64,000 bases of DNA, taken from NCBI GenBank assembly GCA_046056395.1, contig CM100124.1, positions 623,968 through 687,967 of the forward strand. Direction: 5' to 3'. The DNA is from Mugilogobius chulae (lineage: Eukaryota). Both the position numbers and the translations under genes were made by a program. Positions 10,701-41,556 of the stretch are shown piece after piece. Each line of letters starts with the position of its first letter. Position 1 is the stretch's first letter. The notes beneath the pieces were generated by a model, which was not told where the DNA came from, ran no database searches, and worked only from the letters and a program-made list of their open reading frames with translations.

Positions 10701-11594
10701 TCAAAACTGATTGTGAAGACCTCGGGCAGATTTCACTGACCCTGACAACAACTGATGGCTGAAATATGATTGGTTAAAACAATATATTATGAAACACACG
10801 CCTGAAAGCTGCAAAACGATGGAAATGCTACGAAGAAGCCGATGAATAATTATTGAATTATTATTATTATGCATGCGTGCACTAAATATTAGTTATATCA
10901 GTTTGTTATTTAGATATTTTTAGGCCACAGAGAAGGCCTTGCAGGCCCTGACGGTCCGCCACTGCGTGTTACTCTTTACTTCTTTTATTGGATTGATTTT
11001 GCTATGGAGCATGTGTCTTTGCTTGTTTTCCTAATATTTATCATCAAAAATGGTCAAAATACTGTAGTGGATTAAAAAGCCTGTTTGCACATAATAATGA
11101 TAATTTGTTACACCAATGACCACGGACCGGCCCTCCATCAGTTCTCCGGGTTTGAATCTGGCCCTTAGTGGAAAAGAATTACCCACCTCTGGTCTAGATT
11201 CATGACAACGTTGTATTCTTCAACTTGAACACAGCCTATTGACGTAATAATCGTCTGAAGATCGTTATCGAGATGTGCCCAAAAAATATCAAGATATTCA
11301 TTTTTGTCAATATCACCAGCACAAGTATCAAGGTTTTATTTCATTAAAAAGAAGGATTTTGACAAGGCAAGAGATAACTGAGGGCTTAAAAAGTCTTACA
11401 TTTCTTACTTAAAGTTGTGCAGGAGCCATGTATCTCCTCTGTCTACAGTTCTAGAGAGTCATGTCTAAGAAGTCAGATCCTCTCGTTCTCCTCTTGTTCT
11501 TCTAACGTTCTCCTCTTGTTCTTCTAACGTTCTCCTCTTGTTCTTCTAACATTCTCCTCTCTTTCTTGTGTCTCCAGTTCTTTATTAAAGAGTG

Positions 11595-11758
11595 ATGTCT
11601 AAGAAGTCAGGTCCTCGAGTCGTGGACATGGATCTCCCTGTGGACGCCTCCATCATCAGGATTCCTCCTCATCACTACATCCACGTCTGGACCAGAACAC
11701 CAACATCGCCCGCGTGGAGACCGGACCCGCTGACCTACATCAGACAGGACAATGAGAG
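11595..11758 (+). CDS. mvp: Major vault protein, first coding exon (MSKKSGPRVVDMDLPVDASIIRIPPHHYIH…TYIRQDNER)
   Basis: ATG at 11595 after the acceptor CTCCAG|TTC at 11577. It matches vertebrate MVP ([36 protein letters not shown]) and ends AG|GTGAGT. A 14-codon stretch (…[14 protein letters not shown]…) is out of frame relative to the conserved [14 protein letters not shown]. Two compensating 1-nt indels (cacgtCtgg and ccggAcccg) explain this. Confidence 0.8.
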
Positions 11759-12620
11759 GTGAGTTAGACCCAGTTTAGACCTGACTTAGACCTGACTTAG
11801 ACCCACGTTCTGGACCAGAACACCAACATCGCCCGCGTGGAGACCGGCCCGCTGACTTATATCAGACAAGACAATGAGAGGTGAGAAAGACCGGACCTAG
11901 ACCTGACTTAGACCTGGTTTAGACCCACCTACATCAGACAGGACAATGAGAGGTGAGAGAGACCGGACTTAGACCTGGTTTAGACCTGACTCAGACCTAC
12001 GTCCTCGACCAGAACACCAACATCGCCCGCGTGGAGACCGGCCCGCTGACTTATATCAGACAGGACAATGAGAGGTGAGAGAGACCGGACTTAGACCTGA
12101 CTTTAGACCTGGTTTAGACCCACCTACATCAGACAGGACAATGAGAGGTGAGAAAGACCGTACTTAGACCTGACTTAGACCTGGTTTAAACCCACCCACA
12201 TCAGACTGGACAATGAGAGGTGAGAGAGACCGTACTTAGACCTGATTAGACCTGGTTTAGACCCACCTACATCAGACAGGACAATGAGAGGTGAGAGAGA
12301 CCGACTTAGACCTGGTTTAGACCTGGTTTAAACCCACATCAGACAGGACAACGAGAGGTGAGAGAGACCCAGTTTAGACCTGACTTAGACCGCTAGACCT
12401 GGTTTAGACCCACTACATGGACATGAGAGTGAGAAGACCTGACTTAGACCTGGTTGACGGTTTAGACCGGTTTAGACCCACCTACATCGCAGGACAATGA
12501 GAGGTGAGAAAGACCTGACTTAGACCTGGTTTAGACCGAGTTTAAACCCACCTACATCAGACAGGACAATGAGAGGTGAGAAGACTCGACGTAGACCTGG
12601 TTTAGACCTGGTTTGCTATG
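11759..12620. repeat. Tandem array of ~12 copies of the exon-2 3' end plus its splice donor (…ACATCAGACAGGACAATGAGAG|GTGAGA…), embedded in the 11-mer satellite
   Basis: Two long copies (11805-11885, 12000-12080) encode [26 protein letters not shown]|GTGAG in the conserved frame. Shorter copies repeat …TACATCAGACAGGACAATGAGAGGTGAGA…. Confidence 0.85.
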
Positions 12621-13299
12621 ATAAAACTTTATTGTCCATATGAAAACGGAAATTTGCCTTACATATCTGCAACTGCTGCAAGTCCCACATACAACAGACT
12701 TCATTCATCAACATAAAAGATAAAAATACATGAATACATGCGGTAAGATCATGTGTTCTTCCTTTGGTTTAAAAATGTGATGGAACATGACACAAAAGAA
12801 TGTTTAGATTTATTCCTCCTGCTGCAGGGAAATCGAAAACGCCGTCCAGAGAGTAAGAACTCAAACTCATTGTTTAAAACATGATCTGTGTCTGGAGATC
12901 CTGTAGACCAGCCGTTCCCAAACTTTTTGGAGCCGTGCCCCCCCTATTGGCCCATAGATTGCCTGAGGCCCCTCAGTATTATTTCACACTCCATTCAAAG
13001 TTAGTTAGAATGTATATATTTCATATTAGCATTGGGAATCACTGCTGTACCAATGCCACTGTTTTCTTTGTTTGCAAATGAGTGAATGTGCTCTCAAGGG
13101 GAGGTCCTATTTTGGAGCAGATGTTCAGAAGCCTCTGAATCCTGTTCTTTTGTTTAACCGAAAGGCCACAGAACCAAGCCTTACTGCACTAAAGCAGCAG
13201 ACTTTGGATAGTGACTATATAGAACTGCTCCAAGATGTTTCTGTTGACTCCAAAAGAGCTGAGCCTCATCAGAAACACGATTCGTTGTTGCACAAATCT

Positions 13300-13480
13300 A
13301 CTTTCTTAGACCTGGTTTAGACCCACCTCACTCGACAGGACAAGGAGAGATGAGAAAGACCGGGTTTAGGCCTGGTTTAGACCTGGTTTAGACTTGACAT
13401 AGACACACCTTCATCAGACAGAACCACAAGAGGTGAAAAAACAGACTTAGACTTGGTTTAATCCTGGTTCAAGCCTGGTT
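13300..13480. repeat. Degenerate continuation of the donor-copy / 11-mer satellite array
   Basis: Repeats of CCTGGTTTAGAC… with GACAGGACAAGGAGAGATGAGAAAGACC. Confidence 0.6.
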
Positions 13481-13554
13481 TACACCTGGAGATGCATTTT
13501 TCTGTCTTCAGAGCCCGTTTCCTCCCGTGGCAAATTAGATTCATGTTTTGTAGT

Positions 13555-13941
13555 GCTATATTCATATTTTCATCTCTCGTGTCAGAGTCCTGTTTCCTCC
13601 CCTGTGGTCTTGTAGTGTTACATTTATATTTTCTCTCGTGTCAGAGTCCTGTTTCCTCCCCTGTGGTCTTGTTGTGTTATATTCAGTATTTCTCTCTTGT
13701 CAGAGTCCTGTTTTCTCCTCTGTGGTCTTGTAGTGTTACATTTATATTTTCTCTCGTGTCAGAGTCCTGTTTCCTCCTCTGTGGCCTTGTAGTGTTACAT
13801 TTATATTTTCTCTCGTGTCAGAGTCCTGTTTCCTCCTCTGTGGCCTTGTAGTGTTATATTTATATTTTCTCTCGTGTCAGAGGCCTGTTTCCTCCTCTGT
13901 AGTCTTGTAGTGTTACATTTATATTTTCTCTCTCGTGTCAG
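13555..13941. repeat. Tandem array (7 copies, ~60-bp unit) of the exon-3 acceptor site plus first ~16 nt of exon 3 (CTCTCGTGTCAG|AGTCCTGTTTCCTCC…)
   Basis: Each unit repeats a polypyrimidine tract, AG, then AGTCCTGTTTCCTCC. The final unit is the real acceptor. Confidence 0.85.
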
Positions 13942-14137
13942 AGTCCTGTTTCCTCCGCTGCGGATGCTGATGGTGCCTCCGCGTCACTACTGCGTCATCC
14001 TCAATCCCGTTGCCCGCGACGACAACGACCAGGTCCAGTTCGACCAATCAGGGCAGGCCAAGCTGAGACACGCCGACCAGGAGATCCGCCTCACCCAGGA
14101 CCCGTTCCCCCTGTACCCCGGGGAGGAGGTCCAGCAG
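13942..14137 (+). CDS. mvp: MVP coding exon (…[65 protein letters not shown])
   Basis: Matches human MVP [23 protein letters not shown]…[21 protein letters not shown]. Acceptor TCAG|, donor CAG|GTATGA. Phase-consistent with the flanking exons. Confidence 0.9.
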
Positions 14138-14235
14138 GTATGAACCCTCTGTAACCCTCTGTACCCCGCTGTGACCCGGGGAGGTACTGAACCCTCCTGT
14201 ACGTGTCTGAACCCTCCTGTACGTGTGTTTTTCAG

Positions 14236-14358
14236 GACGTGACGCCGCTGCAGATCGTCTTTCCCGACACGGCTCTGAGGCTCCAGGCTCTGCTCGAGTT
14301 CACCGACTCCAAAGGAACCAGAGGACGGCCGGAGACGAGTGGCTCTTCGAGGGACCAG
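14236..14358 (+). CDS. mvp: MVP coding exon (DVTPLQIVFPDTALRLQALLEFTDSKG…[frame change]…[11 protein letters not shown])
   Basis: Matches [42 protein letters not shown]. The 5' part and the 3' part ([12 protein letters not shown]) lie in different frames. That is consistent with one missing nucleotide near 14318-14326 (agaggacggccgg). Confidence 0.75.
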
Positions 14359-15306
14359 GTCTGACTGAGTCCTGCTTTAGTCTGGTTTTAGTCTTGTTTT
14401 AGGGCGTATTCAGACCTATAAAATTTGGTCCGATTTAAACGATCCAGAATTCGTTTTTTCTGACAGTTCAGACTTTTTTTTAGGTCTGAATAAAGACAAG
14501 CGAACTCTGATCCGAATCAAACGATCGGACCGAGACCACCTCTTCAGGTCGGTCTCGGGCTGATTGCAAACGGATTCTGGTGCGGATCACTTATGATCTG
14601 AATACAAACGGCCTCGATCCGAAACGAACACGAAACACATGCTCTTTTTGGACCTGACAAGCCACCGTCACAACGCACAGTCACTAAGCACAATTCTAAG
14701 CACAATTTCCTATCTACACGGTTTATTCTGTTGTCTAGATTTGTCTGAAAACATAAAGATATTTTCTCGCGTTTGTTTCCATCAAATAAAGCACTTTCAT
14801 TTTCAGTCTTAACCCTTCGTGTTTGCACAATGAAACCAAAACAGTAACACTTGGACAGTCTTCTTACCGTGATGGAGTAGAGACGAGGATCCTTACAAAC
14901 CAGATTATCAAATTGCCTCCTTTCCTTACTCGTTTAAATCTATATGTCCAGAAAAATAAGAAAGCAAAGACAGGCTACTGTTCCATTGTGAGCACTGATG
15001 CACCCAGTCCCGCTGGTACAGTGAGTAGTCCGCTGCGTTCACGTCAAATCCCAATGAAATTCATCCTCCCGACGAGCGCCAGGTCTGTGTTTAGTCCCGC
15101 ACAAACCCAGGCTCCTGCCGCCTCACCTCGGGCTCCACACGGGGCTGAAATCACCGCTACCTCTGGACTGGAGTCTGGGTTTGGACCAGTGTCTCGTCCT
15201 GTTTCACTGACAAACAGACCTAATTCTAGTCTATGACAGTAATCAGAAGGTCGTTTATGATAATGAACGAATAACGAGCTGCTACTTTACTATAAAGCCT
15301 AACTTT

Positions 15307-16792: not shown

Positions 16793-16924
16793 GGACCTAT
16801 ATTCCGTGTAAGGAGGTGGTGGTGGTGGAGACGATCAAAGCCACGGTGATCAGAGAAAACCAGGCCATTCGACTGAGAGCGAGGAAGGAAGGAGTGGACC
16901 GGAGCGGAGTGAACCGAGTCACAG
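16793..16924 (+). CDS. mvp: MVP coding exon ([45 protein letters not shown])
   Basis: Matches [45 protein letters not shown]. Acceptor TTCCAG|, donor CAG|GTAAAA. Confidence 0.9.
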
Positions 16925-17004
16925 GTAAAACACGCTGAGAACACGCTGAGAACACGCTAAGAACACGCACACACGAGGGGTATAACGTGTCTGTGTCTCT
17001 GCAG

Positions 17005-17099
17005 GGGAAGAGTGGCTCGTGTCTAAAGTCGGAGCTTATCTGCCCGGAGCTCATGAAGAAGTTATCGACATCGTCAACGCCTTTATCCTCACGGACAAG
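17005..17099 (+). CDS. mvp: MVP coding exon ([31 protein letters not shown])
   Basis: Matches [31 protein letters not shown]. Acceptor TCTGCAG|, donor AAG|GTGAGT. Confidence 0.9.
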
Positions 17100-17215
17100 G
17101 TGAGTCTGGACCAGGACTGGACCAGGTCTGGACCAGGTCTGGACCAGGACTGGACCAGGTCTGGACCAGGACTGGACCAGGTCTGGACCAGGTCTGGACC
17201 AGGACTGAAAAAGGA
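17100..17215. repeat. 11-mer minisatellite (GGACCAGGACT / GGACCAGGTCT) starting at the splice donor
   Basis: Tandem 11-mers directly after GTGAGT. Confidence 0.8.
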
Positions 17216-18177
17216 GGACTAAAACAGGACTAAAACACAGAGCCGGATCTAACCTTTTGCTGGCCCTGAGCTAAAATCAGCTTTGGGGCTCTCCAATCTT
17301 AACCTTTATAAGTCAAGCCAAAGCAGCGTTTAACAAAGACTTTTTCATGATGATTTATAACGACACGCAAAGCGACAGACAAAAATAAGAGTAGACTAAA
17401 TCATATTTCTCAGAATAAAGAGATAATGTAAGATCCTGCCCCTGAAACATTTTCCTTAAATTTGGAGTGGGCTATTTTAGACCAACACACAACGCAGAAT
17501 TTTATTAATATACTGTATGATTGCACCTCATCAAGTTTGACTTAGTGTCAGTGTTTCCAAATGAGGCCCCAGCCCTGTCCCTCTCCCTGTGAGCTCCTCC
17601 TCTGTTCTCTCTTCATGTGCTCACGCTGGAACAGCTGATAAACTGCATCATCGCGCTGGACTTTTTGGACAGAAATACTGAAATTTGAAACTTTTTGGGG
17701 ACAAACAGCCTCATGTTTTATGTGGCTTTTAAAAGAATTCAACATAAATCAGCCGACGTTTAAGTACATCAGCTGTTTGTGTTTGTAGTTCAGTCAATAC
17801 TTGTCCTATTGACACTAATAAAGATTGTCTGAGAGCTTATGAGATATACGTAGAACAGGTATTTTTGTCCAAACTGTTCCCAGAGTCTTTGAGTTGGCGG
17901 TCTGTGCTGAGAATGATCAGACACCTGTTTCAGGAGAAGCGGCTGTGATCCTGTTGTGCCTCAAGAACAGAAGAGGGGAGGTCTATCACGTTTAAGCTTG
18001 TATGATTGGTCAAACAGGTATTATGTACAGCCCAAACCAGAGAGTGAAGCCAACAGACCTGATGACTGGACTGACATAAACTCAAAAAACTATCAGCGCT
18101 CAGAAGGCAGGGCCAAACACAGATGAGGGGCCCTAAGCAACTTGTGTAGTCTGCGTATAGGAAGGTCCGGCTCTGCT

Positions 18178-19112
18178 AAAGCAGGACTAAAGCAGGACTA
18201 AACAGGACTAAAACAGGACTTAAACAGGACTAAAACAGGACTTAAACAGGACTAAACCACGTCTAAAACAGGACTAAACCTGGACTGAAGCAGGACTAAA
18301 ACAGGACTAAAACAGGACTTAAACAGGACTAAAACAGGACTTAAACAGGACTAAACCACGTCTAAAACAGGACTAAACCTGGACTAAAAACAGGACTTAA
18401 ACAGGACTAAAACAGGACTTAAACAGGACTAAACCACGTCTAAAACAGGACTAAATCAGGACTAAAACAGGACTTAAACAGGACTAAACCACGTCTAAAA
18501 CAGGATTAAACCTGGACTAAACAGGACTTAAACAGGACTAAACCACGTCTAAAACAGGACTAAATCAGGACTAAAACAGGACTTAAACAGGACTAAAACA
18601 GGACTTAAACAGGACTAAACCATGTCTAAAACAGGACTAAACCTGGACTAAAACAGGACTTAAACAGGACTAAACCACGTCTAAAACAGGACTAAATCAG
18701 GACTAAAACAGGACTTAAACAGGACTAAAACAGGACTTAAACAGGACTAACCACGTCTAAAACAGGACTAAACCTGGACTAAAACAGGACTTAAACAGGA
18801 CTAAAACAGGACTTAAACAGGACTAAACCTGGACTAAAACAGGACTTAAACAGGACTAAAACAGGACTTAAACAGGACTTAAACAGGACTAAACAGGACT
18901 TAAACAGGACTAAACCTGGACTAAAACAGGACTAAAACAGGACTTAAACAGGACTTAAACAGGACTAAACCACGTCTAAAACAGGACTAAACCTGGACTA
19001 AAACAGGACTAAAACAGGACTAAAACAGGATGAAAATGAGACTAAAACAGGACTATATCAGAACTAAAACAAGACTAAAACAGGACTTAAACAGAACTAA
19101 ACCAGTTCTCTC
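18178..19112. repeat. Minisatellite of the 11-mer family, reverse-complement orientation (AAACAGGACTAAAACAGGACTT…), ~0.9 kb, ending ~10 nt before the exon acceptor
   Basis: Tandem units visible. It is the reverse complement of the GTCCTGTTTTAGTCCTG units seen at 16700-16760. Confidence 0.9.
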
Positions 19113-19124
19113 TCTGGTCCGTAG

Positions 19125-19361
19125 AGGGCGCTGCACGTGCGCGCGCTCCGGCCCTTTAAGGACGCGGGGGGGCGTGACCGTCGTACGGGGGAGGAGTGGC
19201 TGGTCACCATGGCGGACCGAGAGGCTCACATCCCGTCGGTGTCGGAGGAGGTGGTCGGCGTCGTCACGGTAACGACCCTGAGCAGCCGCCAGTACTGCGT
19301 CATCCTGGACCCGGTGGACCAGGCCGGCAACCCGCAGCTGGGCAAGAAGAGGGTCGTCAAG
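19125..19361 (+). CDS. mvp: MVP coding exon ([79 protein letters not shown])
   Basis: Matches [79 protein letters not shown]. Acceptor CCGTAG|, donor AAG|GTAACG. Confidence 0.9.
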
Positions 19362-19784: not shown

Positions 19785-22700
19785 TATTCTTCCTTCAGAG
19801 ACAGATGTTTCCTCCTAAAACTTTGCTCCTCTGATGTTCTCGTCTCTTCTTCAGGGAGAGATGTTTCGTCCCTCTCTTTGCTCCTCTGATGTTCTCGTCT
19901 CTTCTTCAGGGAGAGATGTTTCGTCCTCTCTTTGCTCCTCTGATGTTCTCGTCTCTTCTTCAGGGAGAGATGTTTGGTCCTCTCTTTGCTCCTCTGATGT
20001 TCTCGTCTCTTCTTCAGGGAGAGATGTTTCGTCCTCTCTTTGCTCCTCTGATGTTCTCGTCTCTTCTTCAGGGAGAGATGTTTCGTCCTCTCTTTGCTCC
20101 TCTGATGTTCTCGTCTCTTCTTCAGGGAGAGATGTTTCGTCCTCTCTTGCTCCTCTGATGTTCTCGTCTCTTCTTTCAGGGAGAGATGTTTCGTCCCTCT
20201 CTTTACTTCCTTGAAGTGGCTCTCTGATTCTGTTCTCGTCTCTTCTTCAGGGAGAGATGTTTCGTCCTCTCTTGCTCCTCTGATGTTCTCGTCTCTTCTT
20301 CAGGGAGAGATGTTTCGTCCTCTCTTTGCTCCTCTGATGTTCTCGTCTCTTCTTCAGGGAGAGATGTTTCGTCCTCTCTTTGCTCCTCTGATGTTCTCGT
20401 CTCTTCTTCAGGGAGAGATGTTTCGTCCTCTCTTTGCTCCTCTGATGTTCTCGTCTCTTCTTCAGGGAGAGATGTTTCGTCCTCTCTTGTCCTCTGATGT
20501 TTCGTTCTTCTTCAGGGAAGATGTTTGTCCTCTCTTTGCTCCTCTGATGTTCTCGTCTCTTCTTCAGGGAGAGATGTTTGGTCCTCTCTTTGCTCCTCTG
20601 ATGTTCTCGTCTCTTCTTCAGGGAGAGATGTTTGGTCCTCTCTTTGCTCCTCTGATGTTTCGTCTCTTCTTCAGGGAGAGATGTTTGGTCCTCTCTTTGC
20701 TCCTCTGATGTTCTCGTCTCTTCTTCAGAGAGAGATGTTTGGTCCTCTCTTTGCTCCTCTGATGTTCTCGTCTCTTCTTCAGAGAGAGATGTTTCGTCCT
20801 CTCTTTGCTCCTCTGATGTTCTCGTCTCTTCTTCAGAGAGAGATTTCGTCCTCTCTTTGCTCCTCTGATGTTCTCGTCTCTTCTTCAGGGAGAGATGTTT
20901 CGTCCTCTCTTTGCTCCTCTGATGTTCTCGTCTCTTCTTCAGGGAGAGATGTTTCGTCCTCTCTTTGCTCCTCTGATGTTCTCGTCTCTTCTTCAGGGAG
21001 AGATGTTTGGTCCTCTCTTTGCTCCTCTGATGTTCTCGTCTCTTCTTCAGGGAGAGATGTTTGGTCCTCTCTTTGCTCCTCTGATGTTCTCGTCTCTTCT
21101 TCAGGGAGAGATGTTTCGTCCTCTCTTTGCTCCTCTGATGTTCTCGTCTCTTCTTCAGGGAGAGATGTTTCGTCCTCTCTTTGCTCCTCTGATGTTCTCG
21201 TCTCTTCTTCAGAGAGAGATGTTTCGTCCTCTCTTTGCTCCTCTGATGTTCTCGTCTCTTTTTCAGGGAGAGATGTTTCGTCCTCTCTTTGCTCCTCTGA
21301 TGTTCTCGTCTCTTCTTCAGGGAGAGATGTTTGGTCCTCTCTTTGCTCCTCTGATGTTCTCGTCTCTTCTTCAGGGAGAGATGTTTCGTCCTCTCTTTGC
21401 TCCTCTGATGTTCTCGTCTCTTCTTCAGGGAGAGATGTTTCGTCCTCTCTTTGCTCCTCCTGATGTTCTCGTCTCTTCTTCAGGGAGAGATGTTTCGTCC
21501 TCTCTTTGCTCCTCTGATGTTCTCGTCTCTTCTTCAGGAGAGATGTTTCGTCCTCTCTTTGCTCCTCTGATGTTCTCGTCTCTTCCTCAGAGAGAGATGT
21601 TTCGTCCTCTCTTTGCTCCTCTGATGTTTCTCGTCTCTTCTTCAGGGAGAGATGTTTCGTCCTCTCTTTGCTCCTCTGATGTTCTCGTCTTCTTCAGGAA
21701 GAGATGTTTCGTCCTCTCTTTGCTCCTCTGATGTTCTCGTCTCTTCTTCAGGGAGAGATGTTTCGTCCTCTCTTTGCTCCTCTGATGTTCTCGTCTCTTC
21801 TTCAGGGAGAGATGTTTCGTCCTCTCTTTGCTCCTCTGATGTTCTCGTCTCTTCTTCAGGGAGAGATGTTTCGTCCTCTCTTTGCTCCTCTGATGTTCTC
21901 GTCTCTTCTTCAGGGAGAGATGTTTCGTCCTCTTTGCTCCTCTGATGTTCTCGTCTCTTCTTCAGGAGAGATGTTTCGTCCTCTCTTTGCTCCTCTGATG
22001 TTCTCGTCTCTTCTTCAGGAGAGATGTTTCGTCCTCTCTTTGCTCCTCTGATGTTCTCGTCTCTTCTTCAGGGAGAGATGTTTCGTCCTCTCTTTGCTCC
22101 TCTGATGTTCTCGTCTCTTCTTCAGGGAGAGATGTTTCGTCCTCTCTTTGCTCCTCTGATGTTCTCGTCTCTTCTTCAGGGAGAGATGTTTCGTCCTCTC
22201 TTTGCTCCTCTGATGTTCTCGTCTCTTCTTCAGGAGAGATGTTTCGTCCTCTCTTTGCTCCTCTGATGTTCTCGTCTCTTCTTCAGGAGAGATGTTTCGT
22301 CCTCTCTTTGCTCCTCTGATGTTCTCGTCTCTTCTTCAGGGAGATGTTTCCTCTCTTTGCTCCTCGATGTTCTCGTCTCTTCTTCAGAGAGAGATTTTCG
22401 TCCTCTCTTTGCTCCTCTGATGTTCTCGTCTCTTCTTCAGGGAGAGATGTTTCGTCCTCTCTTTGCTCCTCTGATGTTGTCGTCTCTTCTTCAGGGAGAG
22501 ATGTTTGGTCCTCTCTTTGCTCCTCTGATGTTCTCGTCTCTTCTTCAGGGAGAGATGTTTCGTCCTCTCTTTGCTCCTCTGATGTTCTCGTCTCTTCTTC
22601 AGGGAGAGATGTTTCGTCCTCTCTTTGCTCCTCTGATGTTCTCGTCTCTTCTTCAGGGAGAGATGTTTCGTCCTCTCTTTGCTCCTCTGATGTTCTCGTC

Positions 22701-22965
22701 TCTTCTTCAGGGAGAGATGTTTCGTCCTCTCTTTGCTCCTCTGATGTTCTCGTCTCTTCTTCAGGGAGAGATGTTTCGTCCTCTCTTTGCTCCTCTGATG
22801 TTCTCGTCTCTTCTTCAGGGAGAGATGTTTGGTCCTCTCTTTGCTCCTCTGATGTTCTCGTCTCTTCTTCAGGGAGAGATGTTTCGTCCTCTCTTTGCTC
22901 CTCTGATGTTCTCGTCTCTTCTTCAGAGAGAGATGTTTCGTCCTCTCTTTGCTCCTCTGATGTAG
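19785..22965. repeat. 3.2-kb tandem array (~60 copies, 52-bp unit) duplicating the last ~52 nt of the intron, i.e. the 3' splice acceptor of the next exon: …TCTCGTCTCTTCTTCAG|GGAGAGATGTTTCGTCC…
   Basis: The unit closely matches the genuine acceptor region at 23041-23100 (GGGAGATGTTTCGTCCCCTCGTTGCTCCTTTAATGTCCTTGTCTTCCTTCTTCAG|GGGGAAAAG). All the long ORF-track ORFs at 19834-22985 are read through this repeat. Confidence 0.9.
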
Positions 22966-23095: not shown

Positions 23096-23221
23096 GGGGA
23101 AAAGTCGTTCTTCCTTCAGCCCGGAGAACGTCTGGAGAACGGGATCCAGGACGTGTTTGTTCTGTCTGAGGAGGAAGGTTTGGTGCTGAGAGCTGTGGAG
23201 GCGTTCGACGACGTGGACCCG
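23096..23221 (+). CDS. mvp: MVP coding exon ([42 protein letters not shown])
   Basis: Matches [34 protein letters not shown]…. Acceptor CTTCAG|, donor CCG|GTAAGA. Confidence 0.9.
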
Positions 23222-23720
23222 GTAAGAACCAGGACTGAACCTGGACTAAACCTGGATCTGAACCAGGACTAAACCAGGTAGGAACCAGGGACTGAACCTG
23301 GACTATACCTGGACTTGAACTGAGACTTGAACCAGGAATGAACCAGGTAAGAACCAAGACTGAACCTGGACTTGAACCAGAGAGTGAACCAGGACTGAAC
23401 CAAGACTAAACCCGGTAAGAACCAGGACTGGACCTGGACTAAACCTGGACTTGAACTGAGACTAAACAAGGTAAGGACCAGGACTGAAACCAAGACTAAA
23501 TCAAGATCTGAACCAAGACCTGGGCCAAGACGTGAACAGAGACTGAACCTGGACTGAACCAGGACTGAACCAGGTCTGAACCAAGACTTGAACCAGGACT
23601 AAACCTAGACTTGAACCAGAGAGTGAACCAGGACTAAACTAAGACCTGAACCAAGACCAAACCAGGTAAGAACCAGGACTGAACCTGGACTATACCTGGT
23701 AAGAACGAGGACTAGAGTGG
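23222..23720. repeat. 11-mer family minisatellite (GAACCAGGACTGAACCTGGACTAAACC…) beginning at the splice donor
   Basis: Tandem units directly after GTAAGA. Confidence 0.85.
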
Positions 23721-28192: not shown

Positions 28193-29256
28193 TATAGGGG
28201 TTATGCAGTAACGTTTTTCCGGTCTCAAATAGACATAGGCCAGAGGCGTTGTGGGTCGGGGGGGACTCTGAAAGTCTGGCAACCGAGAGCGGTGCGTGTG
28301 TTCGTTTCTTCCCGACCCACAGCACCTCTGCCCGGTCTCATGAGCACGGCGAGTCTCGGTATGTGCGCGGAGCTTCATCAAAAGATGACAAAAGAGTACT
28401 TTTTTGGAGTAAACAACTGTGTCACTATGGCCAGGGGTGTCGGACTGGGGGGTAAATGGTGCTAGTTTCCCCGGGGCCCAGGACAGGAAAGGGCCCCCAA
28501 AAGCATTTTGTTTGTGAAATACATTGTTCCTCTAAATGTAAGTATTAGTGATATCAGAGAACTCCATCTCTCCTATAAAACGTGGACACAGACTTTGGCT
28601 AAAGAAAATGACTGAAAAAAGAGGAATATTAGTTGGCTAAAATTTTAACAAATACAGCAGCTACAAATATAATATTATGAGCAAGAGTTTGCAGTTTTCA
28701 GTGAACAAATAGCCAGGGTTTGGCACAATGTCAATAAATGTCACAACTTCAACATTATAAAACATCCAAAATGTCACAGGGATTTTCTGAGTGTGATTTT
28801 GGCATCATTTAAACAAGTTAGCTTAAAACATGTTAGTAAAGAGTAAGATTAAAACATTTTATTTTTTTCTCATTTGAGTGAAGGCAGTGCTTCCAACTCA
28901 ATGGTTTTGTCACAAAAACACATAAATGTCTTGTTTTTTAGGCGTTTATGGCAATAAAAATCTTGAAAGGTAGCATTAAAAAGCATTTAATTTATATTAT
29001 ATTATGTGTGGGTTGTAGAAATTAAATAAATTGGCTGTATATGAATATTGTAGCAAGAAATAAAACCCAAATGAATAGAAAAATTACGAGAGACAACTAA
29101 ATAATTAAAACACAAGATCATGTATTAGGGGCCCATCACTAAGTTTGCACCTGGGGCCCAGAATTCGGTGCTACGCCCCTGACTATGGCAACCACGCCAC
29201 CGGATGTAACGACCTAGGTCTATTTGAGGCCCGGAAGACTTTAACGCATAACCCCT
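28193..29256. mobile_element. ~1.06-kb element with terminal inverted repeat ATAGGGGTTATGCRKTAAMG…
   Basis: The 5' end is ATAGGGGTTATGCAGTAACGTTTTTCCGGTCTCAAATAGAC. The reverse complement of the 3' end is CAATAGGGGTTATGCGTTAAAGTCTTCCGGGCCTCAAATAGAC. The internal motif …CCCAGAATTCGGTGCTRCGCCCCTG… recurs at 39820-39860. Confidence 0.55.
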
Positions 29257-29864
29257 ATTGCTGAGTTTAAACTCTTATTGGCACATTAAGAAATTTAAAG
29301 TAAAGCTCACCCCCTGAACTCCACCCACAAACTCCTTTCAAACACAGCAAACCCATTGAAAAGCTTTGAGCAGTGTGATTGGATTGAAAGCAGGTGTCTG
29401 TATCTAGTTTTGAATGGACAATACACGCTGAGGTCACATAGAGTCTATAGAGCCGACATGAGAGACACAGACAGTTTGTGACTATTTTGACCTGAAACTT
29501 TGCACAGTTTAAACTAAAAATACCAAAAACCGTAGTTTATGCAGAAGCTTCTGGACACGGGACCAGAGAATTTGATTGGATTTGAGGAAAGACATGGACT
29601 AAAATCTTATTGATGGAGAAAAGCTCACTGACGTTTGAAGCCTGCACATTCATCTTTATAATAAACATTTAGGACAAATATATGACTTTTCAGTTGTTTT
29701 GTACTTTGGGTTTTGTTTCGACTGAGTTTCATTGTCAAACTTCTGTTTTTATTATCCTTTCTTTTTTATGCTTTTTGTTCCTTTGGCTTTTGTTCTCTTC
29801 AATTAACTTTATTAACGGCACATCTCCTCAACAATCTCCATGGAAACTGTGAGGTATCCATGGA

Positions 29865-30110: not shown

Positions 30111-30136
30111 TAACCGTGTGTGTTTTTGTGTCGGAG

Positions 30137-30360
30137 CAGTTTGAAGACGAAGAGGACGAAGAGGAGGAGCAGGAGCAGGAAGGGGGCGGGGCCAAGCGCA
30201 GACGCCGCGCCGGGATCCAGCGTCGCCCCGGAGACCGCTGGATGCTGCGCGGGCCCATCGAGTACGTGCCCCCCGCTGCGTGGAGGTGGTACTGCGACGC
30301 GACGCCATTCCTCTGGACGAGAACGAAGGGATCTACGTCCGGGACATGAAGACGGGAAAG
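30137..30360 (+). CDS. mvp: MVP coding exon ([48 protein letters not shown][frameshift][27 protein letters not shown])
   Basis: Matches …[45 protein letters not shown]. The conserved reading jumps -1 at ~30279 (gctgcg^gtggaggtg). The ORF track confirms that the upstream frame runs on as …[13 protein letters not shown]… to a TGA at 30347. A 223-nt alternative start is possible at 30140. Donor AAG|GTCAGT. Confidence 0.8.
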
Positions 30361-31690: not shown

Positions 31691-31925
31691 GTTCGCGCGG
31701 TGATCGGACACACCTACATGCTGACCCAGGACGAGGAGCTTTGGAACAAGATTCTCCCGGCCAACGTGGAGGCTCTGCTGGCGTCTCCTCTGGACCCTCT
31801 GGCCGATCGCTCCGACAGGAACCGGGACGCGCAGCAGCTTCCGCGAGACAAAACCCGCGTGGTGTCGTACCGATGCCTCACAACGCCGCTGTGGCAGGTG
31901 TACGACTACAGGAGAAGAAAGCACG
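31691..31925 (+). CDS. mvp: MVP coding exon ([61 protein letters not shown]…; the 3' end is frame-disrupted)
   Basis: Matches [30 protein letters not shown]…DPLADR…[27 protein letters not shown]. The last ~50 nt (cgaTGCCTCACAACGCCGCTGTGGCAGGTGTACGACTACAGGAGAAGAAAGCACG|GTGGGT) differ from the conserved frame by three 1-nt indels, net -1. The downstream tandem copies read …[17 protein letters not shown]|GT in the correct frame. Coordinates within 31681-31741 are ±1 nt, because my reading of that displayed line and the ORF track disagree by one position. Confidence 0.75.
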
Positions 31926-32430
31926 GTGGGTTTAACACGTTAACACGCTTTAGGTACGTCACAACGCGGCTGTGCAGGTGTACGACTACAGAGAGACGGT
32001 TTAACACGCTTTAGTACGTCACAACGCGGCTGTGCAGGTGTACGACTACAGGGAGAAGAAAGCACGGTGGGTTTAACACGTTTAACACGCTTTAGTACGT
32101 CACAACGCCGCTGTGCAGGTGTACGACTACAGGGAGAAGAAAGCACGGTGGGTTTAACACGTTTAACACGCTTTAGTACGTCACAACGCGGCTGTGCAGG
32201 TGTACGACTACAGAGAGAAGAAAGCACGGTGGGTTTAACACGTTTAACACGCTTTATTACGTCACAACGCCGCTGTGCAGGTGTACGACTACAGAGAGAA
32301 GAAAGCTCGGTGGGTTTAACACGTTTAATACGCTTTATTACGTCACAACGCCGCTGTGCAGGTGTACGACTACAGGGAGAAGAAAGCACGGTGGGTTTAA
32401 CACGCTTAACACGCTTTAGTACGTCACAAC
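31926..32430. repeat. Tandem array (~6 copies, ~80-bp unit) duplicating the exon 3' end plus splice donor plus the first ~35 nt of the intron (GTCACAACGCCGCTGTGCAGGTGTACGACTACAGGGAGAAGAAAGCACG|GTGGGTTTAACACGTTTAACACGCTTTAGTAC)
   Basis: Direct tandem copies; each retains a GTGGGT donor and the conserved MVP codons. Confidence 0.9.
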
Positions 32431-33359: not shown

Positions 33360-34331
33360 GGTGGTCATACATGTTATTACACGTGTTATTACATGTGTTA
33401 TAACTGTTGTTTCAGGTTAGAGATGGTCGTCGTGTTATTACATGTGTTATAAAGTTGTTACAGGTTCAGAGCTGGTCGTACGTGTTATTACATGTGTTAC
33501 AACTGTTGTTTCAGGTTCAGAGATGGTCGTACGTGTTATTACATGTGTTACAACTGTTGTTTCAGGTTCAGAGATGGTCGTACGTGTTATTACATGTGTT
33601 ACAACTGTTGTTTCAGGTTCAGAGATGGTCGTACGTGTTATTACATGTGTTACAACTGTTGTTACAGGTTCAGAGATGGTCGTACGTGTTATTACATGTG
33701 TTTATAACTGTTATTACAGGGTTGTTTTCGGCCCGGAGCTGGTCGTACGTGTTGTTAACATGTGTTATAACTGTTGTTACAGAGTGGTTTTCGGCCCGGA
33801 GCTGGTCGTACGTGTTATTACATGTGTTATAAACTGTTGTTTCAGGTTCAGAGCTGGTCGTACGTGTTATTACATGTGTTATAACTGTTATTACAGGGTT
33901 GTTTTCGGCCCGGAGCTGGTCGTACGTGTTATTACATATGTTATAACTGTTATTACAGAGTGGTTTTTGGCTCGTAGCTGGTCGTACGTGTTATTACATG
34001 TGTTATAACTGTTATTACAGAGTGGTTTTGGGCTCGTAGCTGGTCGTACGTGTTGTTACATGTGTTTATAACTGTTATTACAGAGTGGTTTTCGGCCCGG
34101 AGCTGGTCGTACGTGTTATTACAAGTGTTATACCTGTTGTTACAGAGTGGTTTTTGGCTCGTAGCTGGTCGTACGTGTTATTACATATGTTATAACTGTT
34201 ATTACAGAGTGGTTTTTGGCTCGTAGCTGGTCGTACGTGTTATTACATGTGTTATTACTCTTGTTTCAGAGTGGTTTTCGGCCCGGAGCTGGTCGTATGT
34301 GTTATTACATGTGTTATTTCTGTTATTACAG
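33360..34331. repeat. Tandem array (~16 copies, ~60-bp unit) duplicating the acceptor site plus first ~25 nt of the next MVP exon (…TGTTATTACAG|AGTGGTTTTCGGCCCGGAGCTGGTC…)
   Basis: Later units contain the exact exon start AGTGGTTTTCGGCCCGGAGCTGGTCGTAC. Earlier units are diverged (…TTTCAGGTTCAGAGATGGTCGTAC…). The last unit is the real acceptor. Confidence 0.9.
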
Positions 34332-34529
34332 AGTGGTTTTCGGCCCGGAGCTGGTCATGCTCGGTCCGGACGAACAGTTCACGGTTCTCTCTCTCTCCGG
34401 GGACAAACCGAAGCGAGCCAACGTGATCAAAGCCGTGTGTCTGCTGCTCGGACCGGACTTCTGCACCGACGTCATCACCATAGAAACGGCCGACCACGCC
34501 CGCCTCCAGCTGCAGCTTGCCTACAACTG
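34332..34529 (+). CDS. mvp: MVP coding exon ([66 protein letters not shown])
   Basis: Near-identical to human [66 protein letters not shown]. Acceptor TTACAG|; the donor is the non-canonical-looking TG|GTACTC. Confidence 0.9.
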
Positions 34530-35607: not shown

Positions 35608-35752
35608 GCACTTTGACGTGAAGAGTCCGGTGAGCGCTGAACACGCCGCCGCGCTCTTCTCCGTCCCAGACTTTGTGGGCGACGCCTGTAAAGCCATCGC
35701 CTCCAAGATCAGAGGAGCTGTGGCGTCGGTGCAGTTCGACGACTTCCACAAG
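35608..35752 (+). CDS. mvp: MVP coding exon ([48 protein letters not shown])
   Basis: Matches [48 protein letters not shown]. Acceptor GTTCAG|, donor AAG|GTGAGA. Confidence 0.9.
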
Positions 35753-35830
35753 GTGAGAACGAGACAAGGACGCGAGGAGAGAGAGTTTTTATCCTTTTAA
35801 TCTCACTGGAAACTCTCCTGCTCCCGTCAG

Positions 35831-36042
35831 AACTCAAACCGGATCATCTGCTCGGCCGTGTTCGGTTTCGACGAGAAGGTCCACATCCGGCCGTCGCTGG
35901 AGTTCGCTCAGAACCGTCTGGTCATCAGCAGCGTCGACATCCAGTCTGTGGAGCCTGTGGACCAGAGAACCAGAGACGCCCTGCAGAAGAGCGTCCAGCT
36001 GGCCATCGAGATCACCACCAACTCTCAGGAGGCGGCTGCACG
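35831..36042 (+). CDS. mvp: MVP coding exon ([70 protein letters not shown][R])
   Basis: Matches NSARIIRTAVFGFE…[44 protein letters not shown]. Acceptor CGTCAG|, donor CG|GTGAGG. Confidence 0.9.
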
Positions 36043-36480
36043 GTGAGGAGAGAGGGAGGAGAGGAGAGGAGAGAGGAGGGAGGGAGGTAGGGAGGGAGGA
36101 GAACCAGAGACGCCCTGCAGAAGAGCGTCCAGCTGGCCATCGAGATCACCACCAACTCTCAGGAGGCGGCCGCACGGTGAGGAGAGAGGGAGGGAGGGAG
36201 GGAGGGAGGAGGAGAGGAGAGAGGGAGGAGAGAGGGAGGAGAGAGGAGAGGGTGGAGGAGAGAGGGAGGAGGGAGAGAGAGGGAGGATAGAGTAGAGAGA
36301 GAGGAGAGGAGGGAGGGAGGAGAGAGGGAGAGAGAACCAGAGACGCCCTGCAGAAGAGCGTCCAGCTGGCCATCGAGATCACTACGAACTCTCAGGAGGC
36401 GGCCGCACGGTGAGGAGAGAGGGAGGAGAGAGGGAGGGAGGAGAACCAGAGACGCCCTGCAGAAGAGAGTTCACCTGGCC
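36043..36480. repeat. Intron start carrying 2.5 extra tandem copies of the exon 3' end plus donor (GAACCAGAGACGCCCTGCAGAAGAGCGTCCAGCTGGCCATCGAGATCACCACCAACTCTCAGGAGGCGGCCGCACG|GTGAGG), separated by purine-rich (GAGGGAGG)n
   Basis: Copies at 36101-36183 and 36336-36418, plus a partial copy at 36446-36480 that runs directly into the next exon's acceptor. Confidence 0.85.
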
Positions 36481-36524
36481 AGAGATTCTCAAAATAACCA
36501 TGTGACCGTTTTTTGTGTTTTCAG

Positions 36525-36641
36525 TCACGAAGCCGAGCGTCTGGAGCAGCAGGCCAAAGGAAAACTGGAACGACAGAGAATCACCGACCAGGCCGAGGCC
36601 GAGAGAGCCAGGAAAGAGCTGCTGGAGCTGGAGGCCATGAG
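36525..36641 (+). CDS. mvp: MVP coding exon ([38 protein letters not shown])
   Basis: Matches [38 protein letters not shown]. Acceptor TTTTCAG|, donor AG|GTGAGA. Confidence 0.9.
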
Positions 36642-36759
36642 GTGAGAACCAGGACTGAACCAGGACTAAAACAGGACTAAAACAGGACTGAACCAGGACT
36701 AAAACAGGACTGCACCTGGACTAAAACAGGACTGCACCAGGACTAAAACAGGACTTACC

Positions 36760-37590: not shown

Positions 37591-37599
37591 TACATACAT

Positions 37600-38523
37600 G
37601 ATATATATTTTTGTCAGTGCGGCTTGCGGTTGTCGAGCTTTATTAATATATTTTGTGTTTTGTCAGTGCTGCTGTGGAGCTTTAATAATAATATATTTTG
37701 TGTTTTGTCAGTGCTGCTGTGGAGTTTTAATAATAATATATTGTGTGTTTTATCAGTGCTGCTGTGGAGTTTTAATAATAATATATTGTGTGTTTTATCA
37801 GTGCTGCTGTGGAGTTTTAATAATAATATATTTTGTGTTTTATCAGTGCTGCTGTGGAGCTTTAATAATAATATATTTTGTGTTTTATCAGTGCGGCTGT
37901 GGAGTTTTTATAATAATAATATATTTTGTGTTTTATCAGTGCTGCGGTGGAGCTTTAATAATAATATATTTTGTGTTTTATCAGTGCTGCTGTGGAGCTT
38001 TAATAATAATATATTTTGTGTTTTATCAGTGCTGCTGTGGAGTTTTAATAATAATATATTTTGTGTTTTGTCAGTGCTGCTGTGGAGCTGTTATAATAAT
38101 ATATTTTGTGTTTTATCAGTGCTGCTGTGGAGCTTTAATAATAATATATTTTGTGTTTTGTCAGTGCTGCTGTGGAGCTTTAATAATAATATATTGTGTG
38201 TTTTATCAGTGCTGCGGTGGAGCTTTAATAATAATATATTTGTATTTTATCAGTGCTGCTGTGGAGCTTTAATAATAATATATTTTGTGTTTTATCAGTG
38301 CTGCTGTGGAGCTTTAATAATAATATATTTTTGTGTTTTGTCAGTGCTGCTGTGGAGCTTTAATAATAATATATTTTGTATTTTATCAGTGCTGCTGTGG
38401 AGCTTTAATAATAATATATTTTGTGTTTTGTCAGTGCTGCTGTGGAGCTTTTATAATAATATATTTGTATTTTATCAGTGCTGCGGTGGAGCTTTAATAA
38501 TAATATATTTTGTATTTTATCAG
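37600..38523. repeat. Tandem array (~20 copies, 46-bp unit) duplicating the acceptor site plus first ~15 nt of the next MVP exon (…GTGTTTTATCAG|TGCTGCTGTGGAGCTTTAATAATAATATATTTT…)
   Basis: The unit is the real acceptor TATTTTATCAG|TGCTGCGGTGGAG (38513-38536). The ORF-track ORFs at 37598-38559 read through this repeat. Confidence 0.9.
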
Positions 38524-38650
38524 TGCTGCGGTGGAGAGCACCGGAGCGGCCAAAGCTGAAGCTCAGTCCAGAGCAGAAGCAGCTCGGATCCAGGGAGAAG
38601 CCGCTGTGGAGGAGGCCAAGCTGAAGGCCGAGGCCCAGAGGATCGAGGCT
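38524..38650 (+). CDS. mvp: MVP coding exon ([42 protein letters not shown])
   Basis: Matches [42 protein letters not shown]. Donor GCT|GTGAGT. Confidence 0.9.
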
Positions 38651-38731
38651 GTGAGTTTAAAACCTACATCTGCACATTTAAGCCCTTCCTCTCTCTGATT
38701 GGCTGCGCTCTGCTGGGTCATGTGACTTTAG

Positions 38732-38920
38732 GAGGCGGAGCTTCAGCGTCTGGCCCAGGCTCGTGAGCAGGAGCTGAGTTATAAGAAGAACATGGACCTT
38801 CTGGAGGTGGAGAAGCAGCAGAAACTGTCCCAGATCGAGACCACCAAGTTCAGCGAGCTGGTGAAGAGCCTGGGCGCCGACACGCTGAGGGAGATGGCCA
38901 GAGCGGGGCCGGAGCTGCAG
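38732..38920 (+). CDS. mvp: MVP coding exon (EAELQRLAQAREQELSYKKNMDLLEVEKQQKLSQIETTKFSELVKSLGADTLREMARAGPELQ)
   Basis: Matches [63 protein letters not shown]. Acceptor TTTAG|, donor CAG|GTGAGC. Confidence 0.9.
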
Positions 38921-39039
38921 GTGAGCGCGCACAAACAACACGCACAAAAACACGCACACAAACAAGCAGACGAAACAAGAGAATCACAGGACACAACACG
39001 CACAAAACACGAATACACAGACACCGCACGAGGACAAAC

Positions 39040-39095
39040 ACGCTGAGGGAGATGGCCAGAGCGGGGCCGGAGCTGCAGGTGAGCGCGCACAAACG
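39040..39095. repeat. Duplicate of the preceding exon's 3' end plus donor (CGCTGAGGGAGATGGCCAGAGCGGGGCCGGAGCTGCAG|GTGAGCGCGCACAAACGACACGCACAC)
   Basis: Exact copy of 38884-38945. Confidence 0.85.
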
Positions 39096-40499
39096 ACACG
39101 CACACACTGCTTTTCCTGCCCTGGGCCTCGGGGAATCTATCACCATTTGCAGTCTGACCTCCTGTTAAGCTTCAGTATGATGTGAATGCTTCACAGATGC
39201 TTTTTCTAGAAGAGAATAAAAACCAAATGAATAGAGAGGGGACTAAATAAAAGGTGTTTTCGCACATTAAAGTAACAGGAACTGCGTACCCACATTCCCT
39301 TAGTCCCTGTTTAGTCAGACGAACTACCCTGTTCCCATGTTTGTGTTCACACAGCAACAGTTTGTGAAAGTGGGCCATATTCTGGAACATTTAAGTAGGT
39401 CATTAAGTTGTCTTAGGAAAACAAAACACTTAAGTATAATGTACAAAAGCTAAAAAAAAAAAATTTAAAAATCACTGAAATTAACAATACAGCGCAATTG
39501 TTCACTGTTATTCCTAAAAATAGTTATTTTGGGAGCTACAGATTTAAGTATTTTTCTCGAGGATAAGAATGTTTATCTAAATGTCATAATCTATAAAACA
39601 TGTTTCCAAACAGAGTTAGTGTTGTAAATGTGCTTGTCACCAAAAGGTTCCTGGTCTGACTGAAAGTACCTGCCTCAAAGCAGGAGCTAAAAAAAGTCCC
39701 TAAAGTGTGGCCCCAGTCCATAGTTCCTGGTCTGTGTGAACACGCCTAAAAAGGGGACTGGAACTAAAAAAAAGTACTAGGAACTGAAAAAGTTGCTACA
39801 GTGGGCAAAAGCCCAAGTTTTGCCCCAAGTACCCAGAATTTGGTGCTGCGCCCCTGCTCCTTTAGGCCCAGCACAGACTGAGCACTCTCACAGGAACTGA
39901 TTATTTGAGAAGGAAAAAGGGCTGCAGAGGTTCCAGAACGTGAGCGCCTTTCATACAACCTCACCACAACCAGGACTAGTTTGCTTTGTGTTTGAGTGTG
40001 ATGTAGAGTGAGGCGTTTACATGTGAGTGTGGAGGGTCTGTCACTCACTGGACTGTGTGTGAGCTCATCTCTGCTCTCTCTGTGACTAAAACTGACTCCG
40101 CCCACAACTGCACCTCAAACAGAATCGCAAAAGTGGGAGATGCAGGAGGCCTTTAAAGAGACGCCCAGGTGGGTGTGAACAGACTTTGATTGACAGCACC
40201 AAATATGGACAGTGAGCTTGTGAGTGATGTGAGTTTTGTGTGGGAGCGATCCTGACGTGAGGAGAAGTTCACAGCTCTGAGGCTGTGCAGCACAAGTCTA
40301 GTTTCTTACTCACACGTCAAGATTCTTTTTTGTTAATTAACTTTGCAGACACATGTATGAAGCCTTTGCTTTAGCCACGTAAACACATGAGCTCCTGTGA
40401 GTATTTTCTAAAATTGAAATTGAGAAAAATTAAACAAAGAATCGAGGATCAAACCTGCAAACCTTTGCACCTCACAGCTCACGTTTATTTAACTGAGCC

Positions 40500-41125
40500 A
40501 AATGTCTGATGTCTAGTGCTGTAGTTGCCCAAAGACATTCTTGGTCGACTAAAACATGTCCCATTAATCGACTAAAAAGGGGGCGTGTCAAAGGCTCTGG
40601 CAGTAAAAGTAGAGTTGTCAAAAATATTGCAAATCAATGCTAAAACTAGCAGTACAGATGACATAAACAGGACAAAAATTTGGACCAAATTTGATATTTT
40701 CTGGAAATTTTTCCCCCCAAAATTTTTGAAAAATTTAAAATAATCTTGAGCTTCAAGTGGTTTGAAAATAAACAGTTTGATCCCATTCTTGCATTTTGTG
40801 TTGAAAATGCCAGTCCATTGTATAAAAATCTGACTTTTTGAAAGGGCCTTCTAATCCTCATTGTGGTATCAAAATTGGGAATCAAATCTATTCTTTAGTC
40901 TGAAAATCGGGTTTGAAATTTTAGTTTTGTGACAACTCTACTAGAAACTTTGTTCAAACAGACCAATATCATAAGTAGTTAATGCAAAAACTCTAGTTTA
41001 TACAGAAAATTAATAAGAAACAGTGTGTTTGTATAAAAAAGGCAAATCAGACCAAATATCCTTATCATCTAAATAAAAGAATTGGTCGACTATTAAAAAA
41101 CGACTAAAGAACTACAGCTCTACTG
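40500..41125. mobile_element. ~620-bp non-autonomous DNA element with ~100-bp terminal inverted repeats (…GCTGTAGTT…TTGGTCGACTAAAA…AGTAGAGTTGTC…)
   Basis: 5' 40506-40625 and 3' 40900-41125 are inverted copies. The same terminus appears as a solo copy at 7790-7930. Confidence 0.55.
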
Positions 41126-41427
41126 ATGTCACTTTGCAGCTGGCGACTGTTTTTAAGTTTGCCTTAGCAGCTACGTCAGAAGATGGTGTTTTTATCCCCC
41201 ACCTGGGTCTGTCGCGTCATCTCGATGTTTTGTGGCCGTGAACTGAAAATGCACTGACAGGAGTTAGACCATCGGCAGCACAGTCGCGATTTTGCACACA
41301 AAAATGTCCAAAAAAAGGGCCTGGAAACAGTAGTCTTTTGTGTCTCCAGGTTCTTGTTTTCTCTCTCTGTCTCATGTATAAATCTGTCCTCACACTTGTC
41401 TCTGTCTCTCTGTCTCTGTGTGTCCAG

Positions 41428-41556
41428 GTGAAGATGCTCCAGGCTCTGGGTCTCAAGTCGACTCTGATCACAGACGGATCCTCCCCCATCAACCTGTTCA
41501 CCACCGCCAACGGCCTGCTGGGGGCGCTGCCGGGGCCGGGACAGGGAAACGAATAG
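41428..41556 (+). CDS. mvp: MVP last coding exon ([42 protein letters not shown])
   Basis: Matches [38 protein letters not shown]…. Acceptor GTCCAG|; TAG stop at 41554-41556. Confidence 0.9.

Follow-up and report, generated by a model that had tools for sequence, protein, structure and literature searches.

A 64,000-nt stretch of contig CM100124.1 (Mugilogobius chulae, GenBank assembly GCA_046056395.1; hereafter the window, to which all positions refer) was analysed for the gene of the major vault protein (MVP). MVP is the subunit of approximately 880 amino acids (aa) that builds the shell of the vault ribonucleoprotein. The window had been predicted to hold a complete MVP gene with 16 coding exons. 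In tblastn searches of the window, first with vertebrate MVP and next with goby MVPs of a protein collection, strong colinear matches were found on the + strand from 11595 to 41556. With the goby proteins, every exon was recovered in order.

As references served the MVP loci annotated in Eucyclogobius newberryi (L001/L004) and in Knipowitschia caucasica (L002/L005). Exact exon models were derived for both loci and reproduced their proteins; both contained 16 coding exons with identical phases. The 16 window exons paired one-to-one with the exons of both references in nucleotide alignments made exon by exon, with matched sizes, and the final model was set after small border adjustments (Table 1). 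All 15 introns were of the GT-AG type, as predicted, and all 30 splice sites were intact. The start and stop codons of the original prediction (ATG at 11595, TAG at 41554–41556) were exact. Its start of the first exon at 11578 is plausible, as an acceptor-like CAG ends at 11577 (acceptor AG at 11576–11577). The exon number and phases are those of the annotated goby, sole and bass MVP genes, and the 16 coding exons have the same sizes as in teleost MVP genes. The interpretation as a complete MVP gene is therefore supported, but it had overlooked seven frame-breaking insertions or deletions (indels) of one nucleotide. The intron phases, described as consistent from exon to exon, do not fit together in the sequence as assembled, in which exons 3, 8 and 9 are each 1 nt short.

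After repair of the indels, the product matched the Pfam families Vault (202 bits, in four stretches), Vault_2 (123 bits), Vault_3 (127 bits), Vault_4 (78 bits) and MVP_shoulder (172 bits, residues 551–669), all above the curated cut-offs. Residues 17–875, which take in the long cap-helix and cap-ring region behind the shoulder, were covered by a single alignment to full-length solved MVP chains in the PDB (E = 0). The domain set (Vault repeats, shoulder and cap-helix region) is shared with goby and vertebrate MVPs (Boleophthalmus, Eucyclogobius; rat/human structures PDB 4V60 and 4HL8). The repaired product was 91% identical to the MVP of Boleophthalmus pectinirostris, 90% to that of Periophthalmus and 89% to those of both Eucyclogobius and Knipowitschia. 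Identity to other percomorph MVPs was about 84–87%, and none was higher than 87%. In a neighbour-joining tree, the window MVP was placed inside the goby clade in 100 of 100 bootstraps. Sequence comparison thus supports the view that the locus is the single-copy, full-length orthologue of MVP in a goby (Gobiiformes), in agreement with the eukaryotic, fish-like origin that had been proposed. The repaired product has two additional residues at its C-terminus (...GQGNE). Apart from shared simple repeats, the window introns did not align (blastn) to the loci of Eucyclogobius, Knipowitschia and Boleophthalmus, and the window lineage is therefore not close to these three. The gene itself is well known and annotated across the vertebrates, and the locus is an ordinary one. 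Its span is 30 kb, compared with 9.4 kb in Knipowitschia and 15.8 kb in Eucyclogobius, and the excess is due to intronic arrays.

Table 1. Coding exons (E1–E16), junction-associated arrays and 11-mer blocks of the window. Minus and plus one denote single-nucleotide deletions and insertions relative to the reference gobies.
Feature	Position	Strand	Description
E1	11595..11758	+	carries ATG 11595; −1 after 11686 (GTCCTGG to GTCTGG), +1 at 11725; ~13 codons scrambled
E2	13942..14137	+	196 nt, intact
E3	14236..14358	+	123 nt vs 124 expected; −1 between 14319/14320 (CCAAGAGG to CCAGAGG); frame lost from here
E4	16793..16924	+	132 nt
E5	17005..17099	+	95 nt
E6	19125..19361	+	237 nt
E7	23096..23221	+	126 nt
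E8	30140..30360	+	221 nt vs 222 expected; −1 between 30279/30280 (GCTGCTGTGG to GCTGCGTGG)
E9	31691..31925	+	235 nt vs 236 expected; indels near 31873 (−1), 31893 (+1), 31911 (−1)
E10	34332..34529	+	198 nt
E11	35608..35752	+	145 nt
E12	35831..36042	+	212 nt
E13	36525..36641	+	117 nt
E14	38524..38650	+	127 nt
E15	38732..38920	+	189 nt
E16	41428..41556	+	TAG 41554–41556
Start-region copy	11440..11567	+	one extra acceptor and start-codon region; then pyrimidine-rich 22-mer × 3.8 up to real acceptor
E1 donor array	11681..12614	+	exon 1 3' end (20–78 nt), GTGAG and ~45 nt of intron; periods 122/194/71 nt; 9 pseudo-donors
E2 acceptor array	13548..13960	+	59-nt unit × 6.9: polypyrimidine tract, CAG, first ~24 nt of exon 2; 6 pseudo-acceptors
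E5 3' array	17104..17207	+	11-mer GTCTGGACCAG × 9.5; begins 4 nt past exon 5
E6 5' array	18176..19105	+	11-mer CTAAAACAGGA × 85; ends 19 nt before exon 6
E7 acceptor array	19788..22963	+	54-nt unit × 59, older, more diverged: acceptor and exon start (TTCTTCAG, then exon GGAGAGATGTTTC); 42 pseudo-acceptors
E7 3' array	23226..23713	+	11-mer-based; begins 4 nt past exon 7; donor CC(A/C)GGTAAGAACCAGGACT repeated several times
E9 donor array	31878..32430	+	81-nt unit × 5.3: last ~50 nt of exon 9, GTGGGT and ~28 nt of intron; 5 pseudo-donors; copies unshifted
E10 acceptor arrays	33381..34356	+	51/62-nt units, ~18: TTATTACAG and first 25 nt of exon 10; 9 near-exact pseudo-acceptors
E12 donor copies	35966..36480	+	last ~72 nt of exon 12 and GTGAGG, copied twice near-perfectly and once in part; purine-rich filler between
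E13 3' array	36646..36755	+	11/22-mer; begins 4 nt past exon 13
E14 acceptor array	37644..38536	+	45-nt unit × 19.8: TTTTATCAG and first 13 nt of exon 14; 19 pseudo-acceptors
E15 donor copy	39037..39095	+	single copy of last ~45 nt of exon 15 and GTGAGCGCGCAC donor; ~118 nt into intron 15
Stop-codon array	41539..41771	+	82-nt unit × 3; first unit holds last codons and stop codon
11-mer blocks	8507–8953, 11913–13392, 17218–19106, 23245–23666, 36654–36752, 43693–44329, 47700–53753		

Single-nucleotide indels in the coding sequence

The indels were called by exon-by-exon alignment to the coding sequences (CDSs) of Eucyclogobius and Knipowitschia. They were located in exons 1, 3, 8 and 9, with a −1/+1 pair in exon 1 and a −1/+1/−1 set in exon 9, and they break the frame in comparison with the other goby MVPs. 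The spliced CDS as assembled was 2646 nt long, with the first stop at codon 180 and six internal stops. The frame was regained only at the end of exon 9, leaving about 360 residues out of frame. An uninterrupted MVP reading frame was thus not present as assembled. A product of about 883 aa had been predicted; its length was borne out (882 aa), but only after the seven single-base repairs. The indel rate was approximately 1 per 380 coding bases (~0.26%), and none of the differences in the MVP CDS was a nonsense substitution. Five of the seven indels fell in about 10% of the CDS, namely the 3' ends of exons 1 and 9, which form the first unit of a repeat spanning the splice junction. The downstream copies of these repeats retained the unshifted sequence, and the three indels of exon 9 all fell within its repeated portion, copies of which follow downstream. 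A GT-AG intron leading from the first exon 1 end to one of its later, intact copies could have rescued the frame; such a route was looked for and rejected, since no AG precedes copies B/C.

The ratio of nonsynonymous to synonymous substitution rates (dN/dS) was calculated on the repaired CDS by the Nei–Gojobori method. Between the window and Eucyclogobius, dN/dS was 0.111 for the whole CDS and 0.128 for the out-of-frame stretch; between the window and Knipowitschia, the values were 0.099 and 0.128. The comparison of Eucyclogobius with Knipowitschia, both with intact genes, gave 0.100 and 0.133. Judged by dS, the window and Eucyclogobius have Knipowitschia as their outgroup. The dN to this outgroup was nearly equal for the window (0.0806) and Eucyclogobius (0.0797), and there are therefore no surplus amino-acid changes on the window branch. 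At columns conserved in at least 98% of 125 teleost MVPs, the window had 6 private changes, and the annotated goby proteins had 2–7.

Neutral vertebrate DNA accumulates about one indel per 8–10 substitutions. Over 2.6 kb, seven neutral indels would thus be accompanied by tens of additional substitutions, but about two were seen, so that the indels are best read as consensus errors. Their clustering in repeat units with intact downstream copies is also the pattern expected of reads mis-aligned among copies. Judged from the sequence, the seven indels are probably errors of the assembly consensus rather than signs of pseudogenization. In automated annotation, this MVP gene would be classed as a pseudogene or as a "low quality protein", and inferences of gene loss from this genome call for checking at the read level.

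Splice-junction arrays in gobies

Tandem repeats made up 33% of the gene span and 34% of the intron sequence. The description of the introns as repeat-saturated stands to this extent, but it had missed that many of the arrays are copies of splice junctions. At about ten exon borders, the tandem unit was the junction itself, consisting either of the exon end and the donor or of the acceptor and the exon start (Table 1). Units that join the authentic site to the adjoining exon end or start were established base by base at the donors of exons 1, 9, 12 and 15 and the acceptors of exons 2, 10 and 14. The unit at the exon 7 acceptor was recognised by junction alignment and site counts. The array units showed internally consistent, graded divergence. 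Pseudo-donors were defined as having at most 3 mismatches in 16 nt with the GT kept, and pseudo-acceptors as having at most 4 in 18 nt with the AG kept. By this count, the gene contained 20 pseudo-donors and 76 pseudo-acceptors (~96 decoy sites), with fewer than one expected by chance in a simple binomial estimate. Of the 30 junctions, 11 had a tandem repeat no more than 8 nt away. Random placement of each array inside the intron that holds it gave an expectation of 1.08 such junctions, and 0 of 5000 simulations reached 11.

The copy of the start region contained a pseudo-ATG at 11461, which opens a reading frame of 14 codons ending in TAA (11461–11505). If transcribed, this copy would act as an upstream open reading frame mimicking the MVP start. 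The start-codon exon was also duplicated in Eucyclogobius (L001 2889–3027) and Boleophthalmus (L003 1839–2008).

Junction arrays were present in the MVP genes of other gobies. In Eucyclogobius, 17 pseudo-acceptors preceded exon 2 and 38 preceded exon 10 (55 in total, in introns 1 and 9). In Boleophthalmus, the exons of which were projected by homology, the MVP introns consisted of 54–100% tandem repeat, except for intron 13 (26%). An 83-mer repeated 47 times comprised the last 35 nt of exon 10 and the donor, giving 43 pseudo-donors, and copies of the exon 9 end and exon 10 start were found as well. Arrays in Knipowitschia began 1–3 nt past exons 4 and 5, and none included exon sequence. The sole and largemouth bass MVP genes had zero pseudo-sites by the same count; tandem repeats made up 33% of the sole introns but abutted a single one of the 30 junctions. 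The exon 2 acceptor, the exon 9 donor and the exon 10 acceptor were hit in several gobies, with a unit sequence specific to each species. The junction copies carried each species' own exon variants; the arrays therefore arose independently or stay exon-like by sequence exchange.

At the border of exons 2 and 3 in Boleophthalmus (L003 8926–9964), the final 9 nt of exon 2, which read GTCCAGCAG in other gobies, were replaced at the point where a GGAGGGACC... array sets in, and a GT donor was absent. In the annotated protein, GEE|CAQ stands in place of GEEVQQ, through the use of 9 nt upstream of the usual exon 3 acceptor. Here a splice site may have been displaced by a junction array, or the Boleophthalmus assembly may be in error.

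Proposed splicing among decoys and possible origin of the arrays

A similar arrangement is known from intron 7 (IVS7) of human F7, in which the first unit of a 37-bp variable number tandem repeat spans the exon 7–intron border. The most upstream donor is used and the pseudo-donors are silent, as was shown experimentally (Borensztajn et al. 2006, PMC1557585). Exons 1, 9, 12 and 15 of the window MVP gene likewise provide the first minisatellite element, with the exon end and authentic donor, and identical or near-identical 5' pseudo-sites follow downstream. By analogy with F7, the most upstream, exon-attached donor would be used and the downstream copies would remain silent. At the acceptors, the last unit would be used. 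Since only this unit is continuous with the full exon and its downstream donor, exon definition should favour it. The pre-mRNA would then be spliced correctly, with all copies removed as part of the intron. Unlike F7, for which oriented scanning covers donors, the window gene has about ten such borders, mostly on the acceptor side (76 pseudo-acceptors). The arrays are natural test cases for the spliceosome's choice between an authentic site and dozens of nearly identical decoys.

Taken as a whole, we consider it likely that the window holds a goby MVP orthologue with introns inflated by junction arrays, a transcript that would be correctly spliced, and indels that stem from the consensus. The following points weigh against this reading. 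The clustering of the indels in repeat units could also reflect real slippage mutations. Searches of a collection of 5.8 billion proteins with the full repaired product and with its in-frame C-terminal half revealed no MVP protein or transcript of the same species. The experimental precedent of the F7 type concerns donors, with no equivalent for acceptors, and the presence of 20 to 59 complete polypyrimidine-AG modules upstream of a true site might lead to some mis-splicing. The first two points, together with the early stop and the six internal stops, would also be explained if the gene were in truth an unprocessed pseudogene of very recent origin, or a null haplotype. The indels would in that case be real, arising partly by slippage or gene conversion in the junction repeats (instability is plausible at the repeat-embedded exon ends, where they are enriched), and the allele would yield no full-length MVP. 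We regard this as unlikely. Neither dN/dS nor the relative-rate comparison indicated relaxation, the private changes at conserved sites were within the normal range, and the tens of extra substitutions that seven indels call for under the general ratio were not seen. Moreover, nonsense substitutions were absent, the splice sites were all intact, and MVP was intact in every other teleost retrieved. An artefact of long-read assembly, with over-expanded or mis-joined repeats, could in turn be suspected behind the arrays and pseudo-sites themselves, given the indel errors in the CDS of the same assembly. However, three independently produced goby assemblies show junction-derived arrays in MVP, and with the consistent, graded divergence of the units this makes such an artefact extremely improbable.

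As for the origin of the arrays, a segment spanning a splice junction would have been duplicated and would have seeded a tandem array, which would inflate the intron and fill it with tens of near-identical pseudo-sites. In Rogers' model, introns are reportedly created or enlarged by tandem genomic duplication across AGGT. The window resembles this model in that a duplicated segment with splice signals can be removed as intron, but no new intron was formed; existing introns were lengthened, at the same positions as in other teleosts. The simplest origin would be neutral, with very short ancestral introns in a genome prone to tandem duplication and with arrays spreading until they meet constrained bases. 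Duplications of 50–100 nt in such introns would nearly always include or abut a splice site, without any special link to splicing. We lean slightly towards this explanation. Introns of 63–95 nt are found at seven positions of the Knipowitschia MVP gene, and the 11-mer family described below also fills intergenic DNA. In all four gobies, the arrays typically begin 4–7 nt past the exon, right after the GTRAGT core. On the acceptor side, they stop about 9–40 nt upstream in the window, and at distances down to 4–8 nt in other gobies, unless the entire polypyrimidine-AG module is duplicated. These donor gaps, acceptor-side stops and module duplications fit a neutral origin in short introns. In contrast, the sole introns, despite their repeat content, have a single abutted junction and no pseudo-sites, and the same three junctions recur in several gobies with species-specific units. 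A process of the goby lineage that preferentially seeds and expands arrays at splice junctions, recurrently at the same ones and beyond what short introns and a repeat-prone genome would give, is conceivable but doubtful. If it existed, introns would become several-fold larger, with up to ~100 intact pseudo-sites per gene for the spliceosome to ignore, and goby genes would form a natural, genome-scale counterpart of F7 IVS7 in which splice-site choice, above all at the 3' site, and intron growth could be studied. The neutral origin is compatible with a correctly spliced goby orthologue and competes only with such junction seeding. As a goby-lineage pattern of intron growth, the window MVP gene is moderately interesting; its arrays show introns growing several-fold by copying their own splice signals.

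The 11-mer family and the flanking DNA

A family of 11-bp repeats (CCTGGTTTAGT and variants) occurred in several blocks of the window (Table 1), with 226 matches at no more than one mismatch compared with 1.3 expected. The repeats were in + orientation from 8.5 to 16.7 kb, in − orientation from 17.2 to 42.3 kb, and again in + orientation from 43.7 kb to at least 52.9 kb (the array extends to ~53.7 kb). The idea that the orientation follows the gene strand was rejected, as both orientations occur inside MVP introns. The same family fills the MVP introns of Boleophthalmus and Eucyclogobius. Downstream of MVP, the 6-kb array at 47700–53753 has a 23/46-nt unit (GTTTAATCTTGACTTCGGTCTTG) related to the 11-mer family and causes the strong negative AT skew at 48–54 kb.

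In blastn comparisons with the goby loci, no neighbouring gene was found in the flanks; only the exons and the shared 11-mer family were conserved. The 10 longest non-repeat open reading frames (ORFs) of the flanks and intron 7, including fragments at 57–60 kb, had no Pfam match, and neither Rfam at gathering thresholds nor a tRNA scan gave a match. The prokaryote-style ORF track had rightly been called irrelevant, as 18 of its 22 ORFs of at least 150 aa were at least 50% tandem repeat. On the − strand at 57100–60000, ORF fragments in different frames resembled, by eye, the endonuclease and reverse transcriptase of a decayed long interspersed nuclear element, a resemblance that Pfam did not confirm. 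A chain of minisatellites occupied 60474–63915 (53-mer × 13, 23-mer × 59, 32-mer × 9, 21-mer × 13 and 42-mer × 4). These repeats account for the long − strand ORFs at 61.3–62.9 kb, where no gene was identified.

Two further repeats were located in MVP introns. Intron 7 contained an inverted repeat (28194–28239 and 29213–29258) with 46-nt arms, 83% complementary and 973 nt apart, which looks like a small DNA-transposon or an insertion resembling a miniature inverted-repeat transposable element. A 234-nt segment of intron 3 (14392–14625) was 72.5% identical to a segment of intron 11 in Knipowitschia (L005 14769–15002). The match, which links two different introns, is probably a shared interspersed repeat.

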